Positions 23,388-30,098 of a stretch of DNA of 32,000 nt are shown piece after piece. The translations under genes and the position numbers were made by a program. Source of the stretch: Mycolicibacterium smegmatis. GTDB lineage: Bacteria > Actinomycetota > Actinomycetes > Mycobacteriales > Mycobacteriaceae. Where the stretch lies: assembly GCF_001457595.1 (NCBI RefSeq), contig NZ_LN831039.1:6540001-6572000 (forward strand). The letters are read 5' to 3'. The notes below the pieces were generated by a model that had not been told where the DNA came from, searched no databases, and was given only the letters and a program-made list of their open reading frames with translations. Within the stretch, counting starts at the first letter, position 1. The number at the start of each line of letters is the position of its first letter.

Positions 23388-23427
23388 TCAGCCCCCGTCG
23401 GATTCGTCCCCCTCCGGCGGGGGCTGA
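23388..23427 (+). terminator. Stem-loop after the small secreted-protein gene
   Basis: tcagcccccg (23388-23397) pairs perfectly with cgggggctga (23418-23427), 10 bp with a 20-nt loop. A tighter alternative, ccccc/ggggg, lies inside it. Confidence 0.45.
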
Positions 23428-24290
23428 TGCATTCCAGAATGCCTTTTCCGGACTACGCCACGGGATCGCGCCGCGCCACCGATAATGGTGCGATGGCAGT
23501 CAACATGGGGGATCTGTTCGCCGCCAACCTCGAATCCCTGCGATATCAGCCGACTGCCAAGCGAATTCGCGCGTGCCTGGGCGGTGAACCCGTGGTCGAC
23601 ACGTGCGCGGCCGTCCTCGTGTGGGAGCCGCGCCGCGTCGTCCCGACGTATGCGGTTCCGCGCGCAGCCATCTCGGCGCAACTGGTTCCCGCGGGCGGCG
23701 ACCACGGCGACGACGAGATTCCCGGCTTCCTCGATCCGTCGGTCCCGTTCACCGCGCACACCTGCTCGGGCACCGGCTTCGACGTGATCGCCGGCGGCGA
23801 GAACAGCCCGTCCGCGGCGTTCACGCCCGACGATCCCGACCTCGCCGACTACGTGATCCTCGACTTCGACTCGTTCGAATGGCGCGAGGAGGACGAACCC
23901 GTGGTGGCCCATCCGCACGACCCGTTCCACCGGATCGACATCCGGCGCAGCGCGCGCCAGGTCCGCATCGAACTCGACGGGCACCTGCTCGCCGAGTCGA
24001 CGCAACCGATGCTGTTGTTCGAGACCGGCCTCCCCACACGCTTCTATCTGCCCTACGACGATGTCGTCACGCCGCTCGAGCTGAGCCAGACCGTCACCTT
24101 CTGCGCCTACAAGGGGCGCGCGAGTTACTACTCGGTGCCCGACGGACCCGCCGACATCGCGTGGACCTATCACGAACCGCTGCACGACGCGGTTCCCGTT
24201 CGCGACCGCATCTGCTTCTTCGACGAGCGTGTCGACGTCGTGGTCGACGGGCAGCACCAGAGCCGCCCGGTCACACCGTGGAGCGATTGA
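23427..24290 (+). CDS. Tandem DUF427 domain protein
   Basis: The C-terminal half, RFYLPYDDV..TVTFCAYKGRASYYSV..IAWTYHEPL..DRICFFDERV, parallels the single-domain protein at 9179..9562. The N-terminal half is a degenerate copy. The start is uncertain, with ATG candidates at 23427, 23439, 23493 and 23505. Confidence 0.72.
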   Translation: MHSRMPFPDYATGSRRATDNGAMAVNMGDLFAANLESLRYQPTAKRIRACLGGEPVVDTCAAVLVWEPRRVVPTYAVPRAAISAQLVPAGGDHGDDEIPGFLDPSVPFTAHTCSGTGFDVIAGGENSPSAAFTPDDPDLADYVILDFDSFEWREEDEPVVAHPHDPFHRIDIRRSARQVRIELDGHLLAESTQPMLLFETGLPTRFYLPYDDVVTPLELSQTVTFCAYKGRASYYSVPDGPADIAWTYHEPLHDAVPVRDRICFFDERVDVVVDGQHQSRPVTPWSD

Positions 24291-24326: not shown

Positions 24327-24353
24327 GGAACGGGTGTTTCGATCCGTGCGGTT
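24327..24353 (+). promoter_or_regulatory. Weak candidate ECF-type promoter GGAAC-N19-GTTC upstream of the membrane operon
   Basis: GGAAC is at 24327-24331 and GTT at 24351-24353. The -10 context gtgcgGTTCtgg resembles ctgcggGTTCttt of copy 1 at 9752. The spacer is 1 nt longer than in the three small-gene promoters. Confidence 0.25.
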
Positions 24354-24371
24354 CTGGCAACATCACCCCAC

Positions 24372-26234
24372 ATGGTGGGCTCGTCGCACGTTTCGCTGGT
24401 CGCCGCCGCGGGAACCGAGGGCGGCGGTGCCGCGCTCGACCAGGTGATCGGGTTGTCCGCGGTCGCGACGGTCATCACGGTCGTGCTGCTGTGGATCGGT
24501 TATCTGCACCGGCAACGACGCATCACGTGGCTGAACACCTTCGCCGAACGCCTCGGGCGCAAGTTCCACCGCCCGCCGTGGGTGGCGCTCCAGATCTTCC
24601 TGTTCACCTCGACCATCATCTGCGCGCTGTTCGGCTTCATCTGGGACGTGAGCCTGCACATCGGTCAAGGCCGCGACGAGGGACCGCTGGCCAACCCCGC
24701 GCACTACTTCATCCTGGTCGGACTGTTCCTGCTGTTCATCGCCGGTGTCATGGCGATGGTGCTGCCCTACGACAAACCGGGTCCGGCGGCGGTCCGGATC
24801 ACCCGCACGTGGTACGCCCCCGTGGGCGGCGTGCTCATGGCGCTGTGCGGCCTGTACGCGCTGATCGGCTTCCCGCTCGACGACATCTGGCACCGCATCT
24901 TCGGCCAGGACGTGACCCTCTGGGGTCCAACACATCTGATGCTCATCGGCGGCGCGGGGTTGTCATTGATCGCGGTGCTGCTTCTCGAGCACGAGGGCCG
25001 GGTGGCGATGGCAGGCAACAGCACCCCGGGCGATATCAAGGACGACACCAGGTTCAACACCTTCCTGCGGTACCTGTCGTTCGGCGGTCTGTTCATCGGG
25101 CTCTCGGTGTTCCAGATCGAATACGACTTCGGTGTCGAGCAGTTCCGCCTGGTGCTGCAGCCCATGATGATCGCGGGTGCGGCCGCGCTGGCAGCCGTCG
25201 CGGCGCGCCTGGTGCTCGGGCCCGGCGCGGCGGTGATCGCCGCGGTGCTCGCGATCGTCCTGCGCGGTGCGGTTTCGCTGGCCGTCGGCCCGGTGCTGGG
25301 CGCCCCGCACAGCTGGTGGGCGCTGTACCTGGGCCCGGCGCTCGTGGTCGAGTTGGTGGCCCTGACACCGCTTGTCAAGCGGCCCTTGGTCTTCGGCGCG
25401 GTCAGCGGCCTCGCGGTCGCGACCGTGGGTCTGTGGCTGGAGTCGCTGTGGATCGGCGCCGTGTACACCTATCCGTGGCCGACGAGCATGTGGGGCGAGG
25501 CGCTGGCCATGTCGATCCCCGTCGCGGTCGGCATGGGTCTGTGCGGTGCGCTGCTGGCCCTGGTGCTCACCAGCAGGCGGTTGCCGCGCCCCGCCGTCGG
25601 CATCTCGATCGTGGTGGCCACCGTGCTGGCGATCGGCGGCGCGGTGGCCAACGGCCTTCGCATCGAGGTTCCCGAGAACGCCACCGCCACAATCGCACTC
25701 ACCGACGCAGCGGGCGCGGGTGAGCAGCGCATGGTCGACGCCGACGTGCGGATCACCCCGGCCGACCTCATCAGCGACGATCCCGAGTGGGTGTCGCTCC
25801 TGTCCTGGCAGGGCGGCCTGGACAATCAGCGCGGCCTGCTGGTGAACCATCTCGAACGAGTCGGCCCCGGCCACTACCGCACCACGCAGCCGATGCCGGT
25901 GTCGGGCTCGTGGAAGACGCTGCTGCGTGTACAGGACGGCACCACCATGGCGGGTGTTCCGATCTACCTGCCCGCCGATCCGGGTATCGGCGCCGAGGAG
26001 CAGCCCGCCGAGGCCGTCAGCACGCGGGAGTTCGTGCCGGAGATCACGATCCTGCAGCGCGAGCGCAACCTCGATCACCCGTCGTGGTTGTTCGGCGCGG
26101 CTTCGCTCGTGGTCCTGGTGTGCACGTTGCTCCTGATCGCCGCGTTGACGTGGGGTGCGGGCCGGGTCAACGCGCGAGAGCTGGCAGCAGGCAGCACCAC
26201 CGACGAGACCCGACCGGTTCAGCCTCAGACATGA
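24372..26234 (+). CDS. Large polytopic membrane protein (roughly 13 TM helices plus a roughly 130-aa extracytoplasmic domain), function unknown
   Basis: 620 aa with many hydrophobic segments. Notable motifs are WDVSLHIGQGRDEGPLANPAHY and DDIWHRIFGQDVTLWGPTHL. A soluble segment, VPENATATIAL..PIYLPADPG, precedes the last TM. Confidence 0.75.
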   Translation: MVGSSHVSLVAAAGTEGGGAALDQVIGLSAVATVITVVLLWIGYLHRQRRITWLNTFAERLGRKFHRPPWVALQIFLFTSTIICALFGFIWDVSLHIGQGRDEGPLANPAHYFILVGLFLLFIAGVMAMVLPYDKPGPAAVRITRTWYAPVGGVLMALCGLYALIGFPLDDIWHRIFGQDVTLWGPTHLMLIGGAGLSLIAVLLLEHEGRVAMAGNSTPGDIKDDTRFNTFLRYLSFGGLFIGLSVFQIEYDFGVEQFRLVLQPMMIAGAAALAAVAARLVLGPGAAVIAAVLAIVLRGAVSLAVGPVLGAPHSWWALYLGPALVVELVALTPLVKRPLVFGAVSGLAVATVGLWLESLWIGAVYTYPWPTSMWGEALAMSIPVAVGMGLCGALLALVLTSRRLPRPAVGISIVVATVLAIGGAVANGLRIEVPENATATIALTDAAGAGEQRMVDADVRITPADLISDDPEWVSLLSWQGGLDNQRGLLVNHLERVGPGHYRTTQPMPVSGSWKTLLRVQDGTTMAGVPIYLPADPGIGAEEQPAEAVSTREFVPEITILQRERNLDHPSWLFGAASLVVLVCTLLLIAALTWGAGRVNARELAAGSTTDETRPVQPQT

Positions 26235-26443
26235 CCGCCGAGATCATCACCTATCAGGCCGACCATCCGTTGCTGCTGGCGGTTCCCGCGTTCGCGCCGG
26301 CAATCGTGGTGGCAGGTGTGGTTGCCTACATCGCGATACGCGACCGGCGCCGTAAAGACCCACCGAAGGATCAGCCGGCCGGGACGAGAGACAGGGTTCA
26401 CAGTGAACGCGGGGGCGTTGCAAGCGAAGATGATTCACCGTGA
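26231..26443 (+). CDS. Small single-pass membrane protein (70 aa)
   Basis: Its ATG overlaps the upstream stop (ATGA at 26231-26234). MTAEIITYQADHPLLLAVPAFAPAIVVAGVVAYIAIRDRRRKD.. has one TM helix followed by a charged tail. It shares a frame with track ORF 25787..26443. Confidence 0.55.
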   Translation: MTAEIITYQADHPLLLAVPAFAPAIVVAGVVAYIAIRDRRRKDPPKDQPAGTRDRVHSERGGVASEDDSP

Positions 26444-26883
26444 TGAACCGTAAACGCAGCCTTGTCGTTGTGGCGACCGCATTGACCCTGGTGACCGCGG
26501 CATGTGGCTCGGGCGGCTCCGACGGTGGCGGGGAACAGACCTCCGCGGCGCCCGCGAGCCCCTCCGAGTTGACCGTCAGCCCGTCGGACATGACCGATCA
26601 GCAGCAGGCCCCCAGCCGGCTGGTGATCGACGTGACGATCAAGGGCGGTGAGGTGACGCCCACCAACGAGCAGTTGCAGGGCAAGGTGGGTGACCCGATC
26701 GTGGTGCGGGTCAACAGCGACGCCGCCGACGAACTGCATGTGCACTCCAACCCCGAGCACAACTTCCCCATCGAACCGCGCAGCGGCCAGCAGTTCCAGT
26801 TCACCGTCGACGTGCCGGGCACCGTCGACATCGAACTGCACCAGTTGAACCGCGTGATCGCCAGCGTGCAAGTGCAGCAGTGA
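26440..26883 (+). CDS. Lipoprotein with a cupredoxin-like beta-sandwich domain, His-rich and lacking a Cys ligand
   Basis: The signal plus lipobox region is MMNRKRSLVVVATALTLVTAAC|GSGG. The domain reads VIDVTIKGGEVTPTNEQLQGKVGDPIVVRVNSDAADELHVHSNPEHNFPIEPRSGQQFQFTVDVPGTVDIELHQ, which resembles EfeO-N / Cupredoxin_1-type domains. The start GTG 26440 or ATG 26443 overlaps the upstream stop. Confidence 0.65.
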   Translation: MMNRKRSLVVVATALTLVTAACGSGGSDGGGEQTSAAPASPSELTVSPSDMTDQQQAPSRLVIDVTIKGGEVTPTNEQLQGKVGDPIVVRVNSDAADELHVHSNPEHNFPIEPRSGQQFQFTVDVPGTVDIELHQLNRVIASVQVQQ

Positions 26884-28172
26884 CTTCGGACCGAACCGCG
26901 CTGCTGGCCCACGGCTTGGGCGGTTCGACCGACCTTCCGATCCCGTACACCTACGCGTTGCTCGGTGCGGCGTGGACGTTGACGTTCACGTTCGCCGTGG
27001 TGGCATTCGCGTGGCGTAGGCCGAGGTTCGACCCCGACAAACCGGGGCATCCGCTGCCCGAGTGGGTGACCACCTTCGTGGACTCCCCCGTCACCCGGTG
27101 GGGCGTCGGCCTGCTCGCGCTGGTGTTCACCGGGTGGGTCGGCGCCCTGTCGTTCACGGGACCCCAGGACGCGTCGAACCCGCTGCCCGGGGTGTTCTAC
27201 GTACTGCTGTGGGTGGGCCTGGTCGCGGTGTCGCTGCTGATCGGTCCGGTCTGGCGGTTGATCTCGCCGGTGCGGACGCTGATCCGGCTGATCCCCGCGA
27301 CGACAGGGCGCCTGCGGTATCCGGCGCGGCTGGGTTACTGGCCCGCCGCAGCCGGACTGTTCGCGTTCGTGTGGCTGGAGCTCGCCAGCGCCGACCCGGG
27401 ATCTCTTGCCGCCATTCGCAACTGGCTGCTCATCTACCTCGCGGTGACACTGGCCGGTGCACTGTGCTGCGGCCAGGGGTGGCTTTCGAACGCCGATCCG
27501 TTCGAGGTCTACAGCACGGCCGCGTCGAAGCTGTCGCCACTGCGCAGGCACGCCGGGCGCATCGTGGTCGGCAACCCGTTCGACCACCTGCAGTCGCTTC
27601 CGGTGCGTCCCGGGGTCGTGGCGGTTCTCGCGGTGCTGCTCGGTTCGACGGCGTTCGACAGCTTCTCGGCGATGCCGGTGTGGCGCAACTTCGTCGACGA
27701 CAACTCGGGTTCGGCGGCGGGCGCGACGTTGATCCGCACCGCCGGCCTTGCGGTGTTCGTCGCGACCGTGGCGCTCACCTTCTGGGCCGCGGCCCGCGCG
27801 ACCGGCGGCGTGGACCGGCAGCAACGTCGTGAACTCCCCGGGCAGATGGTGCACTCGTTGATCCCGATCGTCGTCGGCTACGTCTTCGCGCACTACCTGA
27901 CCTACCTCGTCGAGCGCGGCCAGCAGACCATCTTCCTGCTGTTCGGGATGCACGACGCCCAGGTCAGCTACATCCTGTCGATGCATCCGGCGGTGCTGTC
28001 GTCGCTCAAGGTCGGGTTCGTACTGGCGGGCCATGTCGCAGGCGTGATCGCCGCGCACGACCGGGCACTGCGACTGCTGCCTGCGCGCCACCGGCTCACC
28101 GGGCAGCTCGCGATGATGCTCGTGATGGTCGGCTACACCTTCACCGGCCTGTACCTGCTGTTCGGCGGTTAG
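26880..28172 (+). CDS. Polytopic membrane protein (roughly 10 TM helices), function unknown
   Basis: The GTG start overlaps the upstream stop (GTGA). The N-terminus is LLAHGLGGSTDLPIPYTYALLGAAW. A C-terminal His pair is present, GHVAGVIAAHD. Confidence 0.72.
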   Translation: MTSDRTALLAHGLGGSTDLPIPYTYALLGAAWTLTFTFAVVAFAWRRPRFDPDKPGHPLPEWVTTFVDSPVTRWGVGLLALVFTGWVGALSFTGPQDASNPLPGVFYVLLWVGLVAVSLLIGPVWRLISPVRTLIRLIPATTGRLRYPARLGYWPAAAGLFAFVWLELASADPGSLAAIRNWLLIYLAVTLAGALCCGQGWLSNADPFEVYSTAASKLSPLRRHAGRIVVGNPFDHLQSLPVRPGVVAVLAVLLGSTAFDSFSAMPVWRNFVDDNSGSAAGATLIRTAGLAVFVATVALTFWAAARATGGVDRQQRRELPGQMVHSLIPIVVGYVFAHYLTYLVERGQQTIFLLFGMHDAQVSYILSMHPAVLSSLKVGFVLAGHVAGVIAAHDRALRLLPARHRLTGQLAMMLVMVGYTFTGLYLLFGG

Positions 28173-28735
28173 AGACCGGCGGCGGTCAGCAGCGCCTCGG
28201 CCGCCGCGCGTCCCACGTCGCCGCGGCGCGCGTCGTTGAACACCATGGAACGGCTCGCGACCCCGTCGGTGAGGATCGCGAGCTGCTCGGCCAGCCCCTG
28301 CGGGTCGTCGGCGCCCAGTTCGGTGAGCAACTCGGCGATACGAAGGGTGAAGGCCTGCTTGCGTTCCCGCGTATAGGCGTGCGCGGGACTGTCAGGGTCG
28401 GGGAACTCGGTGGCCGCGGCGACGAACGGGCATCCGCGCACCGGGCCGTCACCGCGCGTCGGCACCGTGAACATCGCCAGGATGCGTTCGCGGGCAGGCA
28501 CATCGGCGTCGTACAGCGCGCTCTCGACCGTGAGACCGGACCGGTAGACGTACTGCAGGAACTCCACCACCAGGTCGTCCTTGGTCGGGAAGTGCGCGTA
28601 CAGCGTGCGTTTGGAGACCGGCGCCTTGGCGGCGATCTGCTCCATGGTGGTCGCGGTGATGCCCTGCGCCTCGAACAACGCGGCGGCCGCGGCGACGATG
28701 CGTTCCCGGCCTCCACGACCGCGCGGTTTGGTCAC
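28169..28735 (-). CDS. TetR/AcrR-family transcriptional regulator
   Basis: HTH: GITATTMEQIAAKAPVSKRTLYAHFPTKDDL. The start is GTG 28735. Its stop overlaps the convergent membrane-protein stop (TTAG at 28169-28172). Confidence 0.88.
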   Translation of the reverse strand: MTKPRGRGGRERIVAAAAALFEAQGITATTMEQIAAKAPVSKRTLYAHFPTKDDLVVEFLQYVYRSGLTVESALYDADVPARERILAMFTVPTRGDGPVRGCPFVAAATEFPDPDSPAHAYTRERKQAFTLRIAELLTELGADDPQGLAEQLAILTDGVASRSMVFNDARRGDVGRAAAEALLTAAGL

Positions 28736-28740
28736 GCCGC

Positions 28741-28810
28741 CAAGTATACGTTCACGTTTACATCCGAGAAGAACCCGCTATCGTCGCTGAGGTAAACGCA
28801 AACGTGTACT
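28741..28810. promoter_or_regulatory. Pair of 20-bp inverted repeats in the TetR / nitroreductase divergent region (candidate operators)
   Basis: aagtatacgttcacgtttac (28741-28760) matches the reverse complement of gtaaacgcaaacgtgtactt (28791-28810) at 17 of 20 positions. The two arms are separated by 30 nt. The region is AT-rich for this genome. Confidence 0.45.
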
Positions 28811-28824
28811 TGAGAGGTGTCCAC

Positions 28825-29529
28825 ATGTCCGTGCCCACCCTGCCCACCGGGCCCACTGTCGACCTGGCCCAAGCCGCCGAACGGCTGATCAAGGGCCGCC
28901 GCGCCGTCCGCGCGTTCCGGCCCGACGAGGTGCCCGAGGAGACCATGCGCGCGGTGTTCGAACTCGCGGGCCACGCGCCGTCGAACTCCAACACACAGCC
29001 GTGGCACGTCGAGGTGGTCAGCGGCGCGGCGCGCGACCGCCTCGCCGAGGCACTGGTCACCGCGCACGCCGAGGAGCGCGTGACGGTGGATTTCCCGTAC
29101 CGCGAGGGCCTCTTCCAGGGTGTGCTGCAGGAGCGGCGCGCCGATTTCGGTTCCCGCCTGTACGCGGCGCTGGGTATCGCGCGCGGCCAGACCGATCTGT
29201 TGCAGGGCTACAACACCGAGAGTCTGCGGTTCTACGGCGCACCGCACGTCGCGATGTTGTTCGCGCCCAACAACACCGAAGCGCGCATCGCGGGCGACAT
29301 GGGGATCTACGCGCAGACGCTGATGCTCGCCATGACCGCGCACGGCATCGCGTCGTGCCCGCAGGCGCTGTTGAGCTTCTACGCCGACACCGTGCGTGCC
29401 GAACTCGGTGTCGAGAACCGAAAATTGCTGATGGGCATCTCGTTCGGCTATGCCGACGACACCGCGGCCGTCAACGGCGTGAGGATCCCGCGGGCAGGCC
29501 TCGCGGAGACCACACGCTTTTCCCGCTGA
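28825..29529 (+). CDS. Nitroreductase-family (FMN-dependent) oxidoreductase
   Basis: RRAVRAFRPDEVPEETMRAVFELAGHAPSNSNTQPWHVEVV is the classic nitroreductase N-terminal block. I place the start at ATG 28825, preceded by SD gagagg; the track ORF starts at GTG 28804. Confidence 0.88.
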   Translation: MSVPTLPTGPTVDLAQAAERLIKGRRAVRAFRPDEVPEETMRAVFELAGHAPSNSNTQPWHVEVVSGAARDRLAEALVTAHAEERVTVDFPYREGLFQGVLQERRADFGSRLYAALGIARGQTDLLQGYNTESLRFYGAPHVAMLFAPNNTEARIAGDMGIYAQTLMLAMTAHGIASCPQALLSFYADTVRAELGVENRKLLMGISFGYADDTAAVNGVRIPRAGLAETTRFSR

Positions 29530-29546: not shown

Positions 29547-30098
29547 ATGCGTGCACTGATTGTCGTCGACGTCCAGAACGATTTCTGTGAGGGCGGTTCG
29601 CTGGCGGTCACCGGTGGTGCGGAAGTGGCCCGCGGGATCACCGAACTGCTGGCCGGTGATCATGGTTACGACCATGTGGTCGCCACGATGGATTTCCACA
29701 TCGACCCGGGTGAGCACTTCTCGGACACGCCCGACTACCGGGTGTCGTGGCCGCGCCACTGCGTGGCCGACACCCAGGGCGCCGAGTTCCATCCGGAGTT
29801 CGATGCAGGTGCGGTGGAGGTGGTGTTCCGCAAGGGCCACTACTCGGCGGCCTACAGCGGCTTCGAGGGCACCGACGAATCGGGGACGACGCTGGCCGAC
29901 TGGCTGCGTGAGCGGGATGTCGACGCGGTCGACGTCGTCGGCATCGCCACCGACTACTGCGTGGCCGCCACGGCCGCCGACGCCGTCGACGCGGGTTTCG
30001 CCACCCGCGTGCTGACGCGTCTGACGGCCGGGGTCGCGCCCGAGAGCACGACGGCGGCGGTCGACCAATTGCGTTCTGCCGGAGTGACGATCAGCTGA
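29547..30098 (+). CDS. pncA: Nicotinamidase / pyrazinamidase
   Basis: MRALIVVDVQNDFCEGGSLAVTGG..ATMDFHIDPGEHFS..WPRHCV..AYSGFEG..VDVVGIATDYCV is close to M. tuberculosis PncA as I recall it, including catalytic Asp8 / Lys / Cys138 equivalents and the metal-binding D-x-H..H. The ATG at 29547 lies inside the longer track ORF 29001..30098. Confidence 0.93.
   Translation: MRALIVVDVQNDFCEGGSLAVTGGAEVARGITELLAGDHGYDHVVATMDFHIDPGEHFSDTPDYRVSWPRHCVADTQGAEFHPEFDAGAVEVVFRKGHYSAAYSGFEGTDESGTTLADWLRERDVDAVDVVGIATDYCVAATAADAVDAGFATRVLTRLTAGVAPESTTAAVDQLRSAGVTIS

Follow-up and report, generated by a model that had tools for sequence, protein, structure and literature searches.

A conserved four-gene envelope operon of Mycolicibacterium smegmatis with a possible role in copper acquisition or delivery

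Copper delivery to and across the cytoplasmic membrane is poorly understood in bacteria, and in mycobacteria both copper supply and copper poisoning shape infection. Several described systems, including CopC/CopD and YcnI/YcnJ (with the mycobacterial Rv0102/MSMEG_4702 among them), encode a small extracytoplasmic beta-sandwich metal binder together with a polytopic, His-bearing membrane protein. Knockout of an Rv0102 homologue lowers cellular copper (PMC11413399), and extended proteobacterial pmo/amo operons include copC, copD, and PCuAC (PMC6189053). Here, we analyzed an operon of four genes, hereafter c1 to c4, within a 32,000-nucleotide (nt) stretch of the Mycolicibacterium smegmatis genome ("the window"; contig NZ_LN831039.1, positions 6,540,001 to 6,572,000). 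The operon corresponds to approximately MSMEG_6499-6502 (numbering approximate) and encodes two large polytopic membrane proteins (c1 and c4), a single-helix protein (c2), and a lipoprotein with a modeled cupredoxin fold (c3). While systems that pair an extracytoplasmic metal binder with polytopic partners are known in general, these protein families, the fold of c1, and the arrangement of the four genes have no published description.

CopC/CopD-type pairs are among the closest known systems and, like c3-c4, accompany the operons of copper monooxygenases as well as genes of oxidase assembly (PMC6189053). The two systems nevertheless differ in their parts: c1 and c4 match neither Pfam CopD nor Caa3_CtaG, the operon has four components, and c3 is of the cupredoxin type, with an internal HxH motif and a lipidated N-terminal Cys where CopC has an N-terminal His brace. 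Based on sequence conservation, structural models, and gene neighborhoods, we propose that the operon encodes a new system by which copper is acquired or delivered at the outer face of the cytoplasmic membrane, one that would parallel CopC/CopD by analogy and not by homology, a reading to which we give about an even chance. The analysis defines three large families with no Pfam, NCBIfam, or PDB relative. More than 6000 homologues belong to the c1 family and as many to that of c4, and gene neighborhoods tie the families to copper enzymes.

Organization of the operon into two modules

The four genes and all motifs described within them lie on the forward strand. c1 (24372-26234) is an open reading frame (ORF) running from ATG to TGA and encoding 620 amino acids (aa), c2 (26231-26443) encodes 70 aa, c3 (26440-26883) 147 aa, and c4 (26880-28172) 430 aa. 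Consecutive genes overlap by ATGA at 26231-26234, GTGATG at 26440-26445, and GTGA at 26880-26883, and both the gene boundaries and these three junctions are exactly as given in the original prediction, which had been made by a model from the DNA letters alone. Third-position GC reaches 0.88-0.90 in c1, c3, and c4, marking them as coding. The value for c2 is lower (0.68), yet c2 is a real gene, since its orthologues are conserved, with invariant features, in at least 57 of the 80 loci introduced below. Proteins identical to c1, c2, and c4 are on deposit for M. smegmatis, and the mc2 155 versions of c2 and c4 are found in UniProt as A0R6C6 and A0R6C8, respectively.

Conservation of the operon was evaluated across the 80 best c1-bearing genome loci, which came from Mycobacterium, Mycolicibacterium, Williamsia, Gordonia, Rhodococcus, and Nocardia. 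A c4 gene lies downstream of c1 in 77 of these, the exceptions being two contig ends and one lone paralogue, and c3 is present in 71, missing in Williamsia, Gordonia, and a contig labeled "Kitasatospora". Overlaps of 4 or 1 nt are retained at 64 of 67 c3/c4 junctions and, where c2 is downstream of c1, at 31 of 35 c1/c2 and 28 of 33 c2/c3 junctions. These start/stop overlaps are not due to chance, and the co-occurrence and retained coupling bear out the earlier description of a translationally coupled envelope operon and show it to be conserved. Clustering of ORFs from the 80 loci revealed no conserved neighbor beyond the four genes; the flanking genes vary by lineage, slow growers having nadA, a lipase, DUF2567, and bioB, and fast growers a pncA-like gene. 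The position of c2 differs in 22 slow-grower loci, where it lies 67-125 nt 5' of c1 and c1 abuts c3, and the retention of c2 through this change of gene order argues for a functional link.

Outside of these loci, the operon resolves into two modules, c1+c2 and c3+c4, which occur apart. Distant c1 homologues in Propionibacteriales, Frankiaceae, and Solirubrobacterales are encoded without c3 or c4, in one of several arrangements: alone beside an Rv1828-like MerR regulator, as tandem copies, with a C-terminal fusion to a short-chain dehydrogenase/reductase (SDR; P0484 and P0501) or coupling to an SDR gene, or beside genes for a flavin monooxygenase (FMO)/Baeyer-Villiger-type monooxygenase, a single-helix protein of 51-56 aa, and an alpha/beta hydrolase. 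Conversely, c3-like and c4 genes joined by the same 4-nt overlap, with no adjacent c1, are found on plasmids of M. rufum, M. vanbaalenii, Rhodococcus, Pseudonocardia, and Variovorax. The picture of one inseparable four-part unit therefore needs revision: the two modules separate elsewhere, Williamsia and Gordonia have no c3, and c2 moves in slow growers.

Some of these loci showed additional features. The contig labeled Kitasatospora arboriphila (L006; NZ_JNYV01000002.1, 1.4 Mb) carries c1-(c2)-c4 with a c1 71% identical to that of M. smegmatis, and may reflect either a mislabeled assembly or horizontal transfer. Outside mycobacteria, c1 often lies next to, or is transcribed divergently from, a MerR gene with an Rv1828-like C-terminal domain (L082 4892-6004; also L084, L085, and L167). 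In Frankiaceae, c1 is preceded by a coupled gene whose product is metallo-beta-lactamase-like by eye only. A gene for ATP synthase subunit a adjoins c1-like genes on a Nocardia chromosome (L072 4187-4984) and a Rubrobacter plasmid (L185 7019-7822), and the Rubrobacter c1 match spans only the two-motif core, residues 91-195. In slow growers (L008/L014), the operon is found between bioB plus two small genes and an aminotransferase gene, near nadA, a LIP lipase gene, and DUF2567. This layout appears to resemble the M. tuberculosis Rv1589-Rv1594 region; M. tuberculosis has a prophage and a repeat element there and may lack the operon.

Folds and conserved residues of the four proteins

None of the four proteins could be assigned to a known family. 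Pfam and NCBIfam scans of c1-c4 returned no match, Pfam scans of 20 c4 members yielded nothing at E <= 10, and searches of PDB sequences with single sequences and profiles of c1, c3, and c4 gave nothing useful beyond marginal c3 matches. Specifically, neither CopD (PF05425) nor Caa3_CtaG was matched by c1 (none at E <= 1) or by the 20 c4 members (none at E <= 10), and NCBIfam was equally negative. There was likewise no Pfam match to FTR1/EfeU, and reading through c1 and c4 revealed no REXXE motif. These Pfam, NCBIfam, and PDB results agree with the earlier statement that the operon includes no recognized transporter family, ATPase, or ABC component.

c3 carries the lipobox VTAAC within MMNRKRSLVVVATALTLVTAAC, with C22 and A20 invariant in 25 orthologues, as found in bacterial lipoproteins. 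A low-complexity flexible linker leads to a domain (residues 60-147) modeled by AlphaFold2 with a predicted local distance difference test (pLDDT) score >96, and the model is a cupredoxin fold: Foldseek returned 328 PDB matches at E <= 0.001, the top ones being a CuA domain (2cua, E 2e-6), EfeO (7wgu), plastocyanins, FtrB (8vuk), and Cupredoxin_1 (4hcf). The only Cys of c3 is the lipobox C22, so that the Cys ligand of Type 1 and CuA copper sites is absent, and the same residue, lipidated, would form the mature N-terminus in place of the His of a CopC histidine brace. The model and its structural matches thus agree with the prediction of a cupredoxin-like lipoprotein devoid of Cys ligands. A putative metal site is encoded at 26716-26760 (S93 D94 x2 D97 E98 x H100 x H102 S x P x H107), and probably acts together with a second segment, the ELH motif at 26833-26841 (E132 x H134). 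S93, D94, H100, and H102 are invariant, and the homologues encoded in Pseudonocardia, in Variovorax, and on copper monooxygenase plasmids share them too; H107, E132, and H134 are near-invariant within Mycobacteriales.

The nearest described proteins to c3 are the EfeO N-terminal domain, PF13473 (Cupredoxin_1/EfeO-N), and FtrB, which share its fold (Foldseek E 2e-6 to 1e-4, target-normalized template modeling (TM) score 0.53-0.66), are also free of Cys ligands, and are encoded beside a permease-like gene. At the sequence level, however, c3 had no match to PF13473 at E <= 1 (threshold 27 bits), the best score in the family being 14.7 bits (E 0.033) for a Pseudonocardia homologue, and its membrane partner is not an Ftr1/EfeU permease. 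A c3-family profile search of PDB sequences yielded marginal matches only, to CuA domains (E ~0.011) and nitrite reductase. c3 has 1061 homologues, and UniRef gives it the propagated name "EfeO-type cupredoxin-like domain" protein; such propagated names apart, the members of these families are annotated as hypothetical.

c4 has at least 6142 homologues, in a family that extends to Proteobacteria and Haloarchaea, and its ~10 hydrophobic segments by hydropathy match the ten or so transmembrane helices originally predicted. Polar positions conserved across the family include H11, D68, R73, N100, E167, D206, D260, H325, H338, E345, Q348, H369, H385, H393, and D394, of which H11, E167, D260, H338, E345, H369, H385, H393, and D394 are invariant. 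The N-terminal motif LAHGLGGSTDLPIP (LAHGLGG..DLP.P; 26904-26945), in which A10, H11, G12, L13, L19, P20, and P22 are invariant, is predicted to face outward, and in the Sulfitobacter and Haladaptatus homologues an apparent signal peptide ends, with a putative cleavage site, just ahead of the equivalent His. At the other end of the protein, an invariant C-terminal helix motif (28029-28061; G384 H385 x6 A392 H393 D394) is predicted from hydropathy to span from mid-membrane to the inner face. Heme binding by H325 and H338, which are 13 residues apart, was considered and rejected, as a second matching His pair is absent.

The c1 family is of similar size, with at least 6473 homologues in 1686 clusters at 50% identity, all annotated as hypothetical, and no precomputed Pfam domain is found on any of the 120 homologues among the matches listed. 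AlphaFold2 modeled c1 with a pLDDT of 90.6 and a predicted TM score (pTM) of 0.91, as 13 long helices with a beta domain (residues 438-553) ahead of the last one, in line with the ~13 helices and extracytoplasmic domain first predicted. Two hairpin motifs stand out, at 24642-24704 (W91 D92 x3 H96 x3 G100 R101 D102 x6 P x H111) and at 24870-24935 (F167 P168 x D170 D171 x W173 H174 x3 G178 x D180 x3 W184 x P186 x H188). Among 38 sequences sharing 28-47% identity, the residues of the first motif vary little or not at all, and those of the second are conserved as well, along with E250, R279, E327, and E564. The second motif is an internal duplicate of the first (hhalign of residues 62-135 vs. 140-218: E 2e-4, probability 46%, 48 columns). 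When the positive-inside rule is applied to the model helices, motif 1 is predicted to lie at the outer end of helices 2 and 3, both hairpins at the outer leaflet, and the C-terminus in the cytoplasm, the latter in agreement with the C-terminal SDR fusions observed in relatives. The motifs that had been quoted from c1, c3, and c4 are all present, and most are conserved family-wide, across these 38 sequences for c1 and in the alignments of c3 and c4.

Structural comparison of c1 against the PDB revealed no global relative, the best of the 50 Foldseek matches listed having an E-value of 3e-3 and a TM score <0.2, and no GT-C structure is among these 50, so that a GT-C glycosyltransferase, as its many helices, periplasmic domain, and Asp loops might have suggested, was rejected. 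Two local matches, one to Helicobacter pylori CrdA (9ll4; probability 0.93, TM score 0.53) and the other to a cbb3 oxidase complex (9g6b, chain C), probably fall on the beta domain (25683-26030). This modeled extracytoplasmic beta-sandwich may resemble FixH, YtkA (CtaK), CrdA, and PCu(A)C, with all signals sub-threshold: Pfam searches with residues 430-568 gave such scores in 3 of 7 domain sequences, for FixH at 13.3 and 12.7 bits (E 0.09 and 0.13; threshold 23) and for YtkA at 15 bits (E 0.04; threshold 25.9), and a profile search of PDB sequences found nothing relevant. Unlike in FixH, YtkA, and CrdA, the conserved residues of the c1 domain (W514, K515, R519, and D536) are not typical copper ligands. 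A further analogy, and only that, can be drawn with cation diffusion facilitators, in which a mid-membrane Zn2+ site is built from HD-HD residues in HxxxD motifs on two helices: c1 similarly has D-x3-H on two neighboring helices, with DH-DH one helical turn apart, but its fold and family are unrelated and its site is predicted at the outer leaflet. No relatedness between c1 and c4 was detected by hhalign.

c2, finally, is characterized by an invariant H12, a PAF.PA helix, an RDRR stop-transfer signal, and a variable acidic tail. Its layout matches that of small proteins whose genes directly follow those of actinobacterial copper monooxygenases (L175 10643-10939; L180 2124-2339). These proteins start with (Y/I)LAHGGQ, followed by a single helix and an acidic tail, and their LAHG motif recurs at the N-terminus of c4. 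Homology of c2 to these proteins is unsupported, with scores of 3-8 bits only.

Gene neighborhoods, proposed function, and alternatives

Functional hints came from the neighborhoods of c3 and c4 homologues. On the M. dioxanotrophicus PH-06 plasmid, genes for sigC, a His-rich lipoprotein, a c3-like protein (BLASTP E 1.6e-12), a c4-like protein (36% identity, E 3e-81), and an anti-sigma factor run in this order ahead of those for subunits C, A, and B of a copper membrane monooxygenase. The M. chubuense NBB4 plasmid pMYCCH.01 encodes copper monooxygenase A and B (the stretch begins inside A) and, four genes on, sigC, a c3-like, and a c4-like protein. SigC counters copper starvation in M. tuberculosis (PMC7924339). 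By analogy with copC, copD, and PCuAC in the extended pmo/amo operons, the c3-c4 pair takes the corresponding place in these actinobacterial copper monooxygenase clusters. A plasmid island of M. vanbaalenii combines c3-c4 with heme-copper oxidase subunit III, TlpA, and a cytochrome oxidase assembly protein, and on the same island c1 (63% identity; the only plasmid c1 copy noted) follows a copC gene whose product is a genuine CopC (AAAH|TSL). Other c4-like genes are found between a P-type ATPase gene and a multicopper oxidase gene (M. gallinarum plasmid, in the order ArsR regulator, P-type ATPase, c4-like, multicopper oxidase), divergent from PCu(A)C (Sulfitobacter), and within a few kb of a heavy-metal P-type ATPase gene in Haloferax and Haloarcula, directly 5' of it in Haloferax. 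On a Pseudonocardia plasmid, the c3-c4 pair lies near a galactose-oxidase-like gene. Where the original prediction had left the metal open between Cu, Fe, and Zn, these neighborhoods back a metal role and favor copper over iron or zinc. A purely transport-based role leaves the cytoplasmic oxidoreductase partners of distant c1 relatives unexplained.

Under our proposal, lipid-anchored c3 would capture copper at its Cys-free D94, H100, H102, H107, E132, and H134 site and hand it to the translationally coupled c4, in which the ion could pass from outer H11, H338, E345, and H369 via mid-membrane H385 to inner H325, H393, and D394. c1 would act as a second station, through its two duplicated outer-leaflet D-x3-H...D...H sites and its FixH/YtkA/CrdA-like beta-sandwich, and c2 would contribute one further outward His. 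As a whole, the system would serve copper uptake, or the supply of envelope enzymes such as cytochrome aa3 oxidase or a multicopper oxidase, i.e., the job done elsewhere by CopC/CopD, YcnI/YcnJ, and PCu(A)C, via unrelated families. We infer the metal, its ligands, the direction of transport, and any physical complex from the gene structure, conservation, folds, co-occurrence, and neighborhoods reported above. The conserved His/Asp clusters, predicted to face outward apart from the C-terminal motif of c4, also count in favor of this proposal. If this proposal is correct, c3+c4 would represent a widespread and unrecognized counterpart of CopC/CopD and a candidate helper for the expression of actinobacterial copper monooxygenases in other hosts, and c1 would be a membrane fold of a new kind, holding a metal site of paired His/Asp residues. 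The genetic tractability of M. smegmatis makes the hypothesis directly testable.

Several observations weigh against this proposal. No copper gene or regulator is found beside the chromosomal operon, in either the window or the 80 loci. About half of the 16 c4 plasmid neighborhoods examined include copper or heavy-metal genes, but plasmids are enriched in metal islands anyway. Alphaproteobacterial c4-like genes lie inside nicotinate catabolism clusters, and the Haloferax c4-like gene is preceded by a gene for a lipoprotein of iron/copper type, combining P19/Iron_transport (PF10634) and DUF7350. Far relatives of c1, at 28-45% identity and with its motifs intact, carry SDR fusions or are coupled to genes for a flavin monooxygenase, a hydrolase, and an SDR. 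Finally, we found no paper on the function of c1-c4; the literature mentions them only in passing, with MSMEG_6501 lower in a sigF mutant (PMC4694148) and MSMEG_6502 included in a ClpC1 interactome (PMC10433963).

The partners of the distant c1 relatives fit an enzyme better than a transporter, and lead to the alternative that survives best, which we consider unlikely on balance: c1, with c2, would be a membrane metalloenzyme (oxygenase, oxidase, or hydrolase) acting at the outer leaflet on a lipid or another hydrophobic compound, with its duplicated D/H/H sites as the catalytic metal center and with c3+c4 limited to supplying or holding its copper. Distant homologues keep the c1 motifs alongside their cytoplasmic SDR fusions, the 51-56 aa gene found with the FMO/Baeyer-Villiger-type monooxygenase and alpha/beta hydrolase genes is c2-like, and tandem c1 paralogues adjoin genes for a membrane protein that is MMPL-like (from sequence alone), an SDR, and type II fatty-acid synthesis. 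These oxidoreductase partners, however, belong to c1 paralogues without c3 and c4, and the mycobacterial operon itself includes no electron donor gene.

This enzymatic alternative also draws on a resemblance of c1 to the PmoC subunit of particulate methane monooxygenase (pMMO). c1 has two conserved (D/N)-x3-H...H hairpin triads, with the motif D-x3-H-x4-(R/Q)-D-x-P-x-H occurring twice, ~78 residues apart, and at the motif level D92/H96/H111 and D170/H174/H188 are spaced almost as D156/H160/H173 and N227/H231/H245, the CuC and CuD ligands of PmoC. For this comparison, the M. capsulatus PmoC sequence was checked against 7ev9_C, and alignments of PmoC (73 sequences), PmoA, and PmoB were taken from 80 metagenome loci. 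The sole local hhalign alignment between c1 and PmoC pairs DDIWHRIFGQDVTLWGPTHL with DGTWHQTIVRD-TDFTPSHI in exact register, and c3, which has an HxH on a cupredoxin fold as PmoB does with H137/H139, finds its best local PmoB match on the CuB ligands (ELHVHS paired with DWHVHT). None of these comparisons is significant: c1 vs. PmoC, as a single sequence or as the 73-sequence alignment, reached a probability of 0.2-0.4% (E 0.16-0.25, 20-23 columns) and failed to align globally, while c4 vs. PmoA and c3 vs. PmoB remained at a probability <1%, so that the operon has no PmoA or PmoB homologue. c1 does not match Pfam AmoC, there is no pMMO chain among its 50 Foldseek matches listed (all E >= 3e-3), its size and helix count differ from those of PmoC, and c4 is not PmoA-like. 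Homology to PmoC, PmoA, or PmoB was therefore rejected (E 0.07-0.28 across all comparisons), and what remains is a motif resemblance compatible with copper binding, through convergence or very deep ancestry. A more specific version, which we regard as improbable, would make c1 the catalytic subunit of an unrecognized actinobacterial class of copper-dependent membrane oxygenases or oxidases, with hairpins convergent with, or anciently related to, the CuC/CuD sites of PmoC, c2 as its small subunit, and c3+c4 as a copper-loading pair. In that case, the paralogues coupled to Baeyer-Villiger monooxygenase, esterase, and SDR would catalyze the first step in the sub-terminal oxidation of hydrophobic substrates.

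The P19-type neighbor in Haloferax keeps iron among the candidate metals, and iron uptake in the manner of EfeUOB or FtrABCD, with c3 as the EfeO N-domain or FtrB and with c4 and/or c1 replacing the Ftr1/EfeU permease, would account for the structural matches of c3 to EfeO and Brucella FtrB, for its UniRef name, and for an "iron transporter" gene near the c4-like gene of Haloarcula. We nonetheless find this doubtful, given the lack of an FTR1 match or REXXE motif in c1 and c4 and the absence of EfeB, an M75 domain, or a polyferredoxin partner. In addition, the most specific neighborhoods point to copper (in two cases a copper monooxygenase along with sigC, and otherwise multicopper oxidase, PCu(A)C, or CopC beside genes of oxidase assembly), and no iron-regulated genes are adjacent, although IdeR operator sites were not searched for.

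Least probable of all, and highly improbable, is a role for c4 as the permease of an organic compound or as a hydrolase acting on one, with catalytic or structural His residues, as its occurrence in the nicotinate degradation clusters of Sulfitobacter, Fuscovulum, and Neorhizobium, the pncA-like gene following c4 in 27 of the 80 mycobacterial loci, the UniRef name "Fenitrothion hydrolase" of many c4 orthologues, and the FedA annotation of B. cenocepacia BCAM2542 might suggest: the hydrolase name is propagated and not traceable to a supporting experiment, c4 is an integral membrane protein of ~10 helices without a recognizable hydrolase fold or motif, its gene in Actinobacteria and Variovorax shows tight coupling with that of a partner of cupredoxin fold, and the copper neighborhoods point elsewhere.

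Two further observations concern c4-like genes. A nicotinate/NAD theme recurs around them, with clusters for nicotinate dehydrogenase or 6-hydroxynicotinate reductase (L174, L178, and L179) and, in mycobacteria, the pncA-like gene (at 29548-30098 in the M. smegmatis window) as well as the nadA and bioB genes that flank the slow-grower operon. In Haloarchaea, c4-like genes are coupled to a gene for an 85-91 aa protein with a C2H2-like C-x2-C...H-x3-H pattern and a C-terminal helix (L170 5438-5695, L172 4415-4681, and L173 6056-6331).

Flanking genes and upstream elements

On the 5' side, a DUF427 gene (23427-24290) stops 81 nt before c1, at the distance originally reported. It had been described as a tandem DUF427 gene, but includes a single Pfam DUF427 stretch (residues 179-266), and its adjacency to c1 is preserved in only 5 of the 80 loci. 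On the 3' side, a TetR gene (28169-28735, reverse strand) shares 4 nt with the c4 stop codon, in the convergent overlap already noted. This gene is MSMEG_6503, the known repressor of the nitroreductase gene nfnB (MSMEG_6505; 28804-29529, forward strand, divergent from it), and the locus is the one involved in benzothiazinone/dinitrobenzamide inactivation (PMC3206020). A sequencing primer published for MSMEG_6503 appears, by eye against the c4 translation, inside the c4 3' end (PMC3206020). As the nfnB repressor, this TetR protein tells nothing about the c1-c4 operon, and was ruled out as its regulator.

Immediately upstream of c1, a conserved 15-mer, TCTGGCAACATCACC (24353-24367, forward strand), ends 5 nt before the ATG and reads as an extended -10 promoter (TGn-CAACAT), so that the M. 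smegmatis transcript may be leaderless. With up to 2 mismatches, this 15-mer is found 35-66 nt (once 103 nt) 5' of c1 in ~35 fast-grower loci, with hardly any other occurrence within these loci. Its consensus is TCTGGCAA(C/T)AT(T/C)AC(C/T) (e.g., L003 5933, L016 5930, and L044 5943), and an operator-like block, GATACCCCTGGTTTC, is usually located ~11 nt 5' of the TCTGGCAA element. No Rfam match, terminator, or consensus promoter was found at c1. Slow growers have another conserved block, GGTGTTCAAAGTAGGGTAACGG, 5' of c2, and in the window a separate promoter-like site was detected at 28757-28784, within the TetR-nfnB intergenic region.

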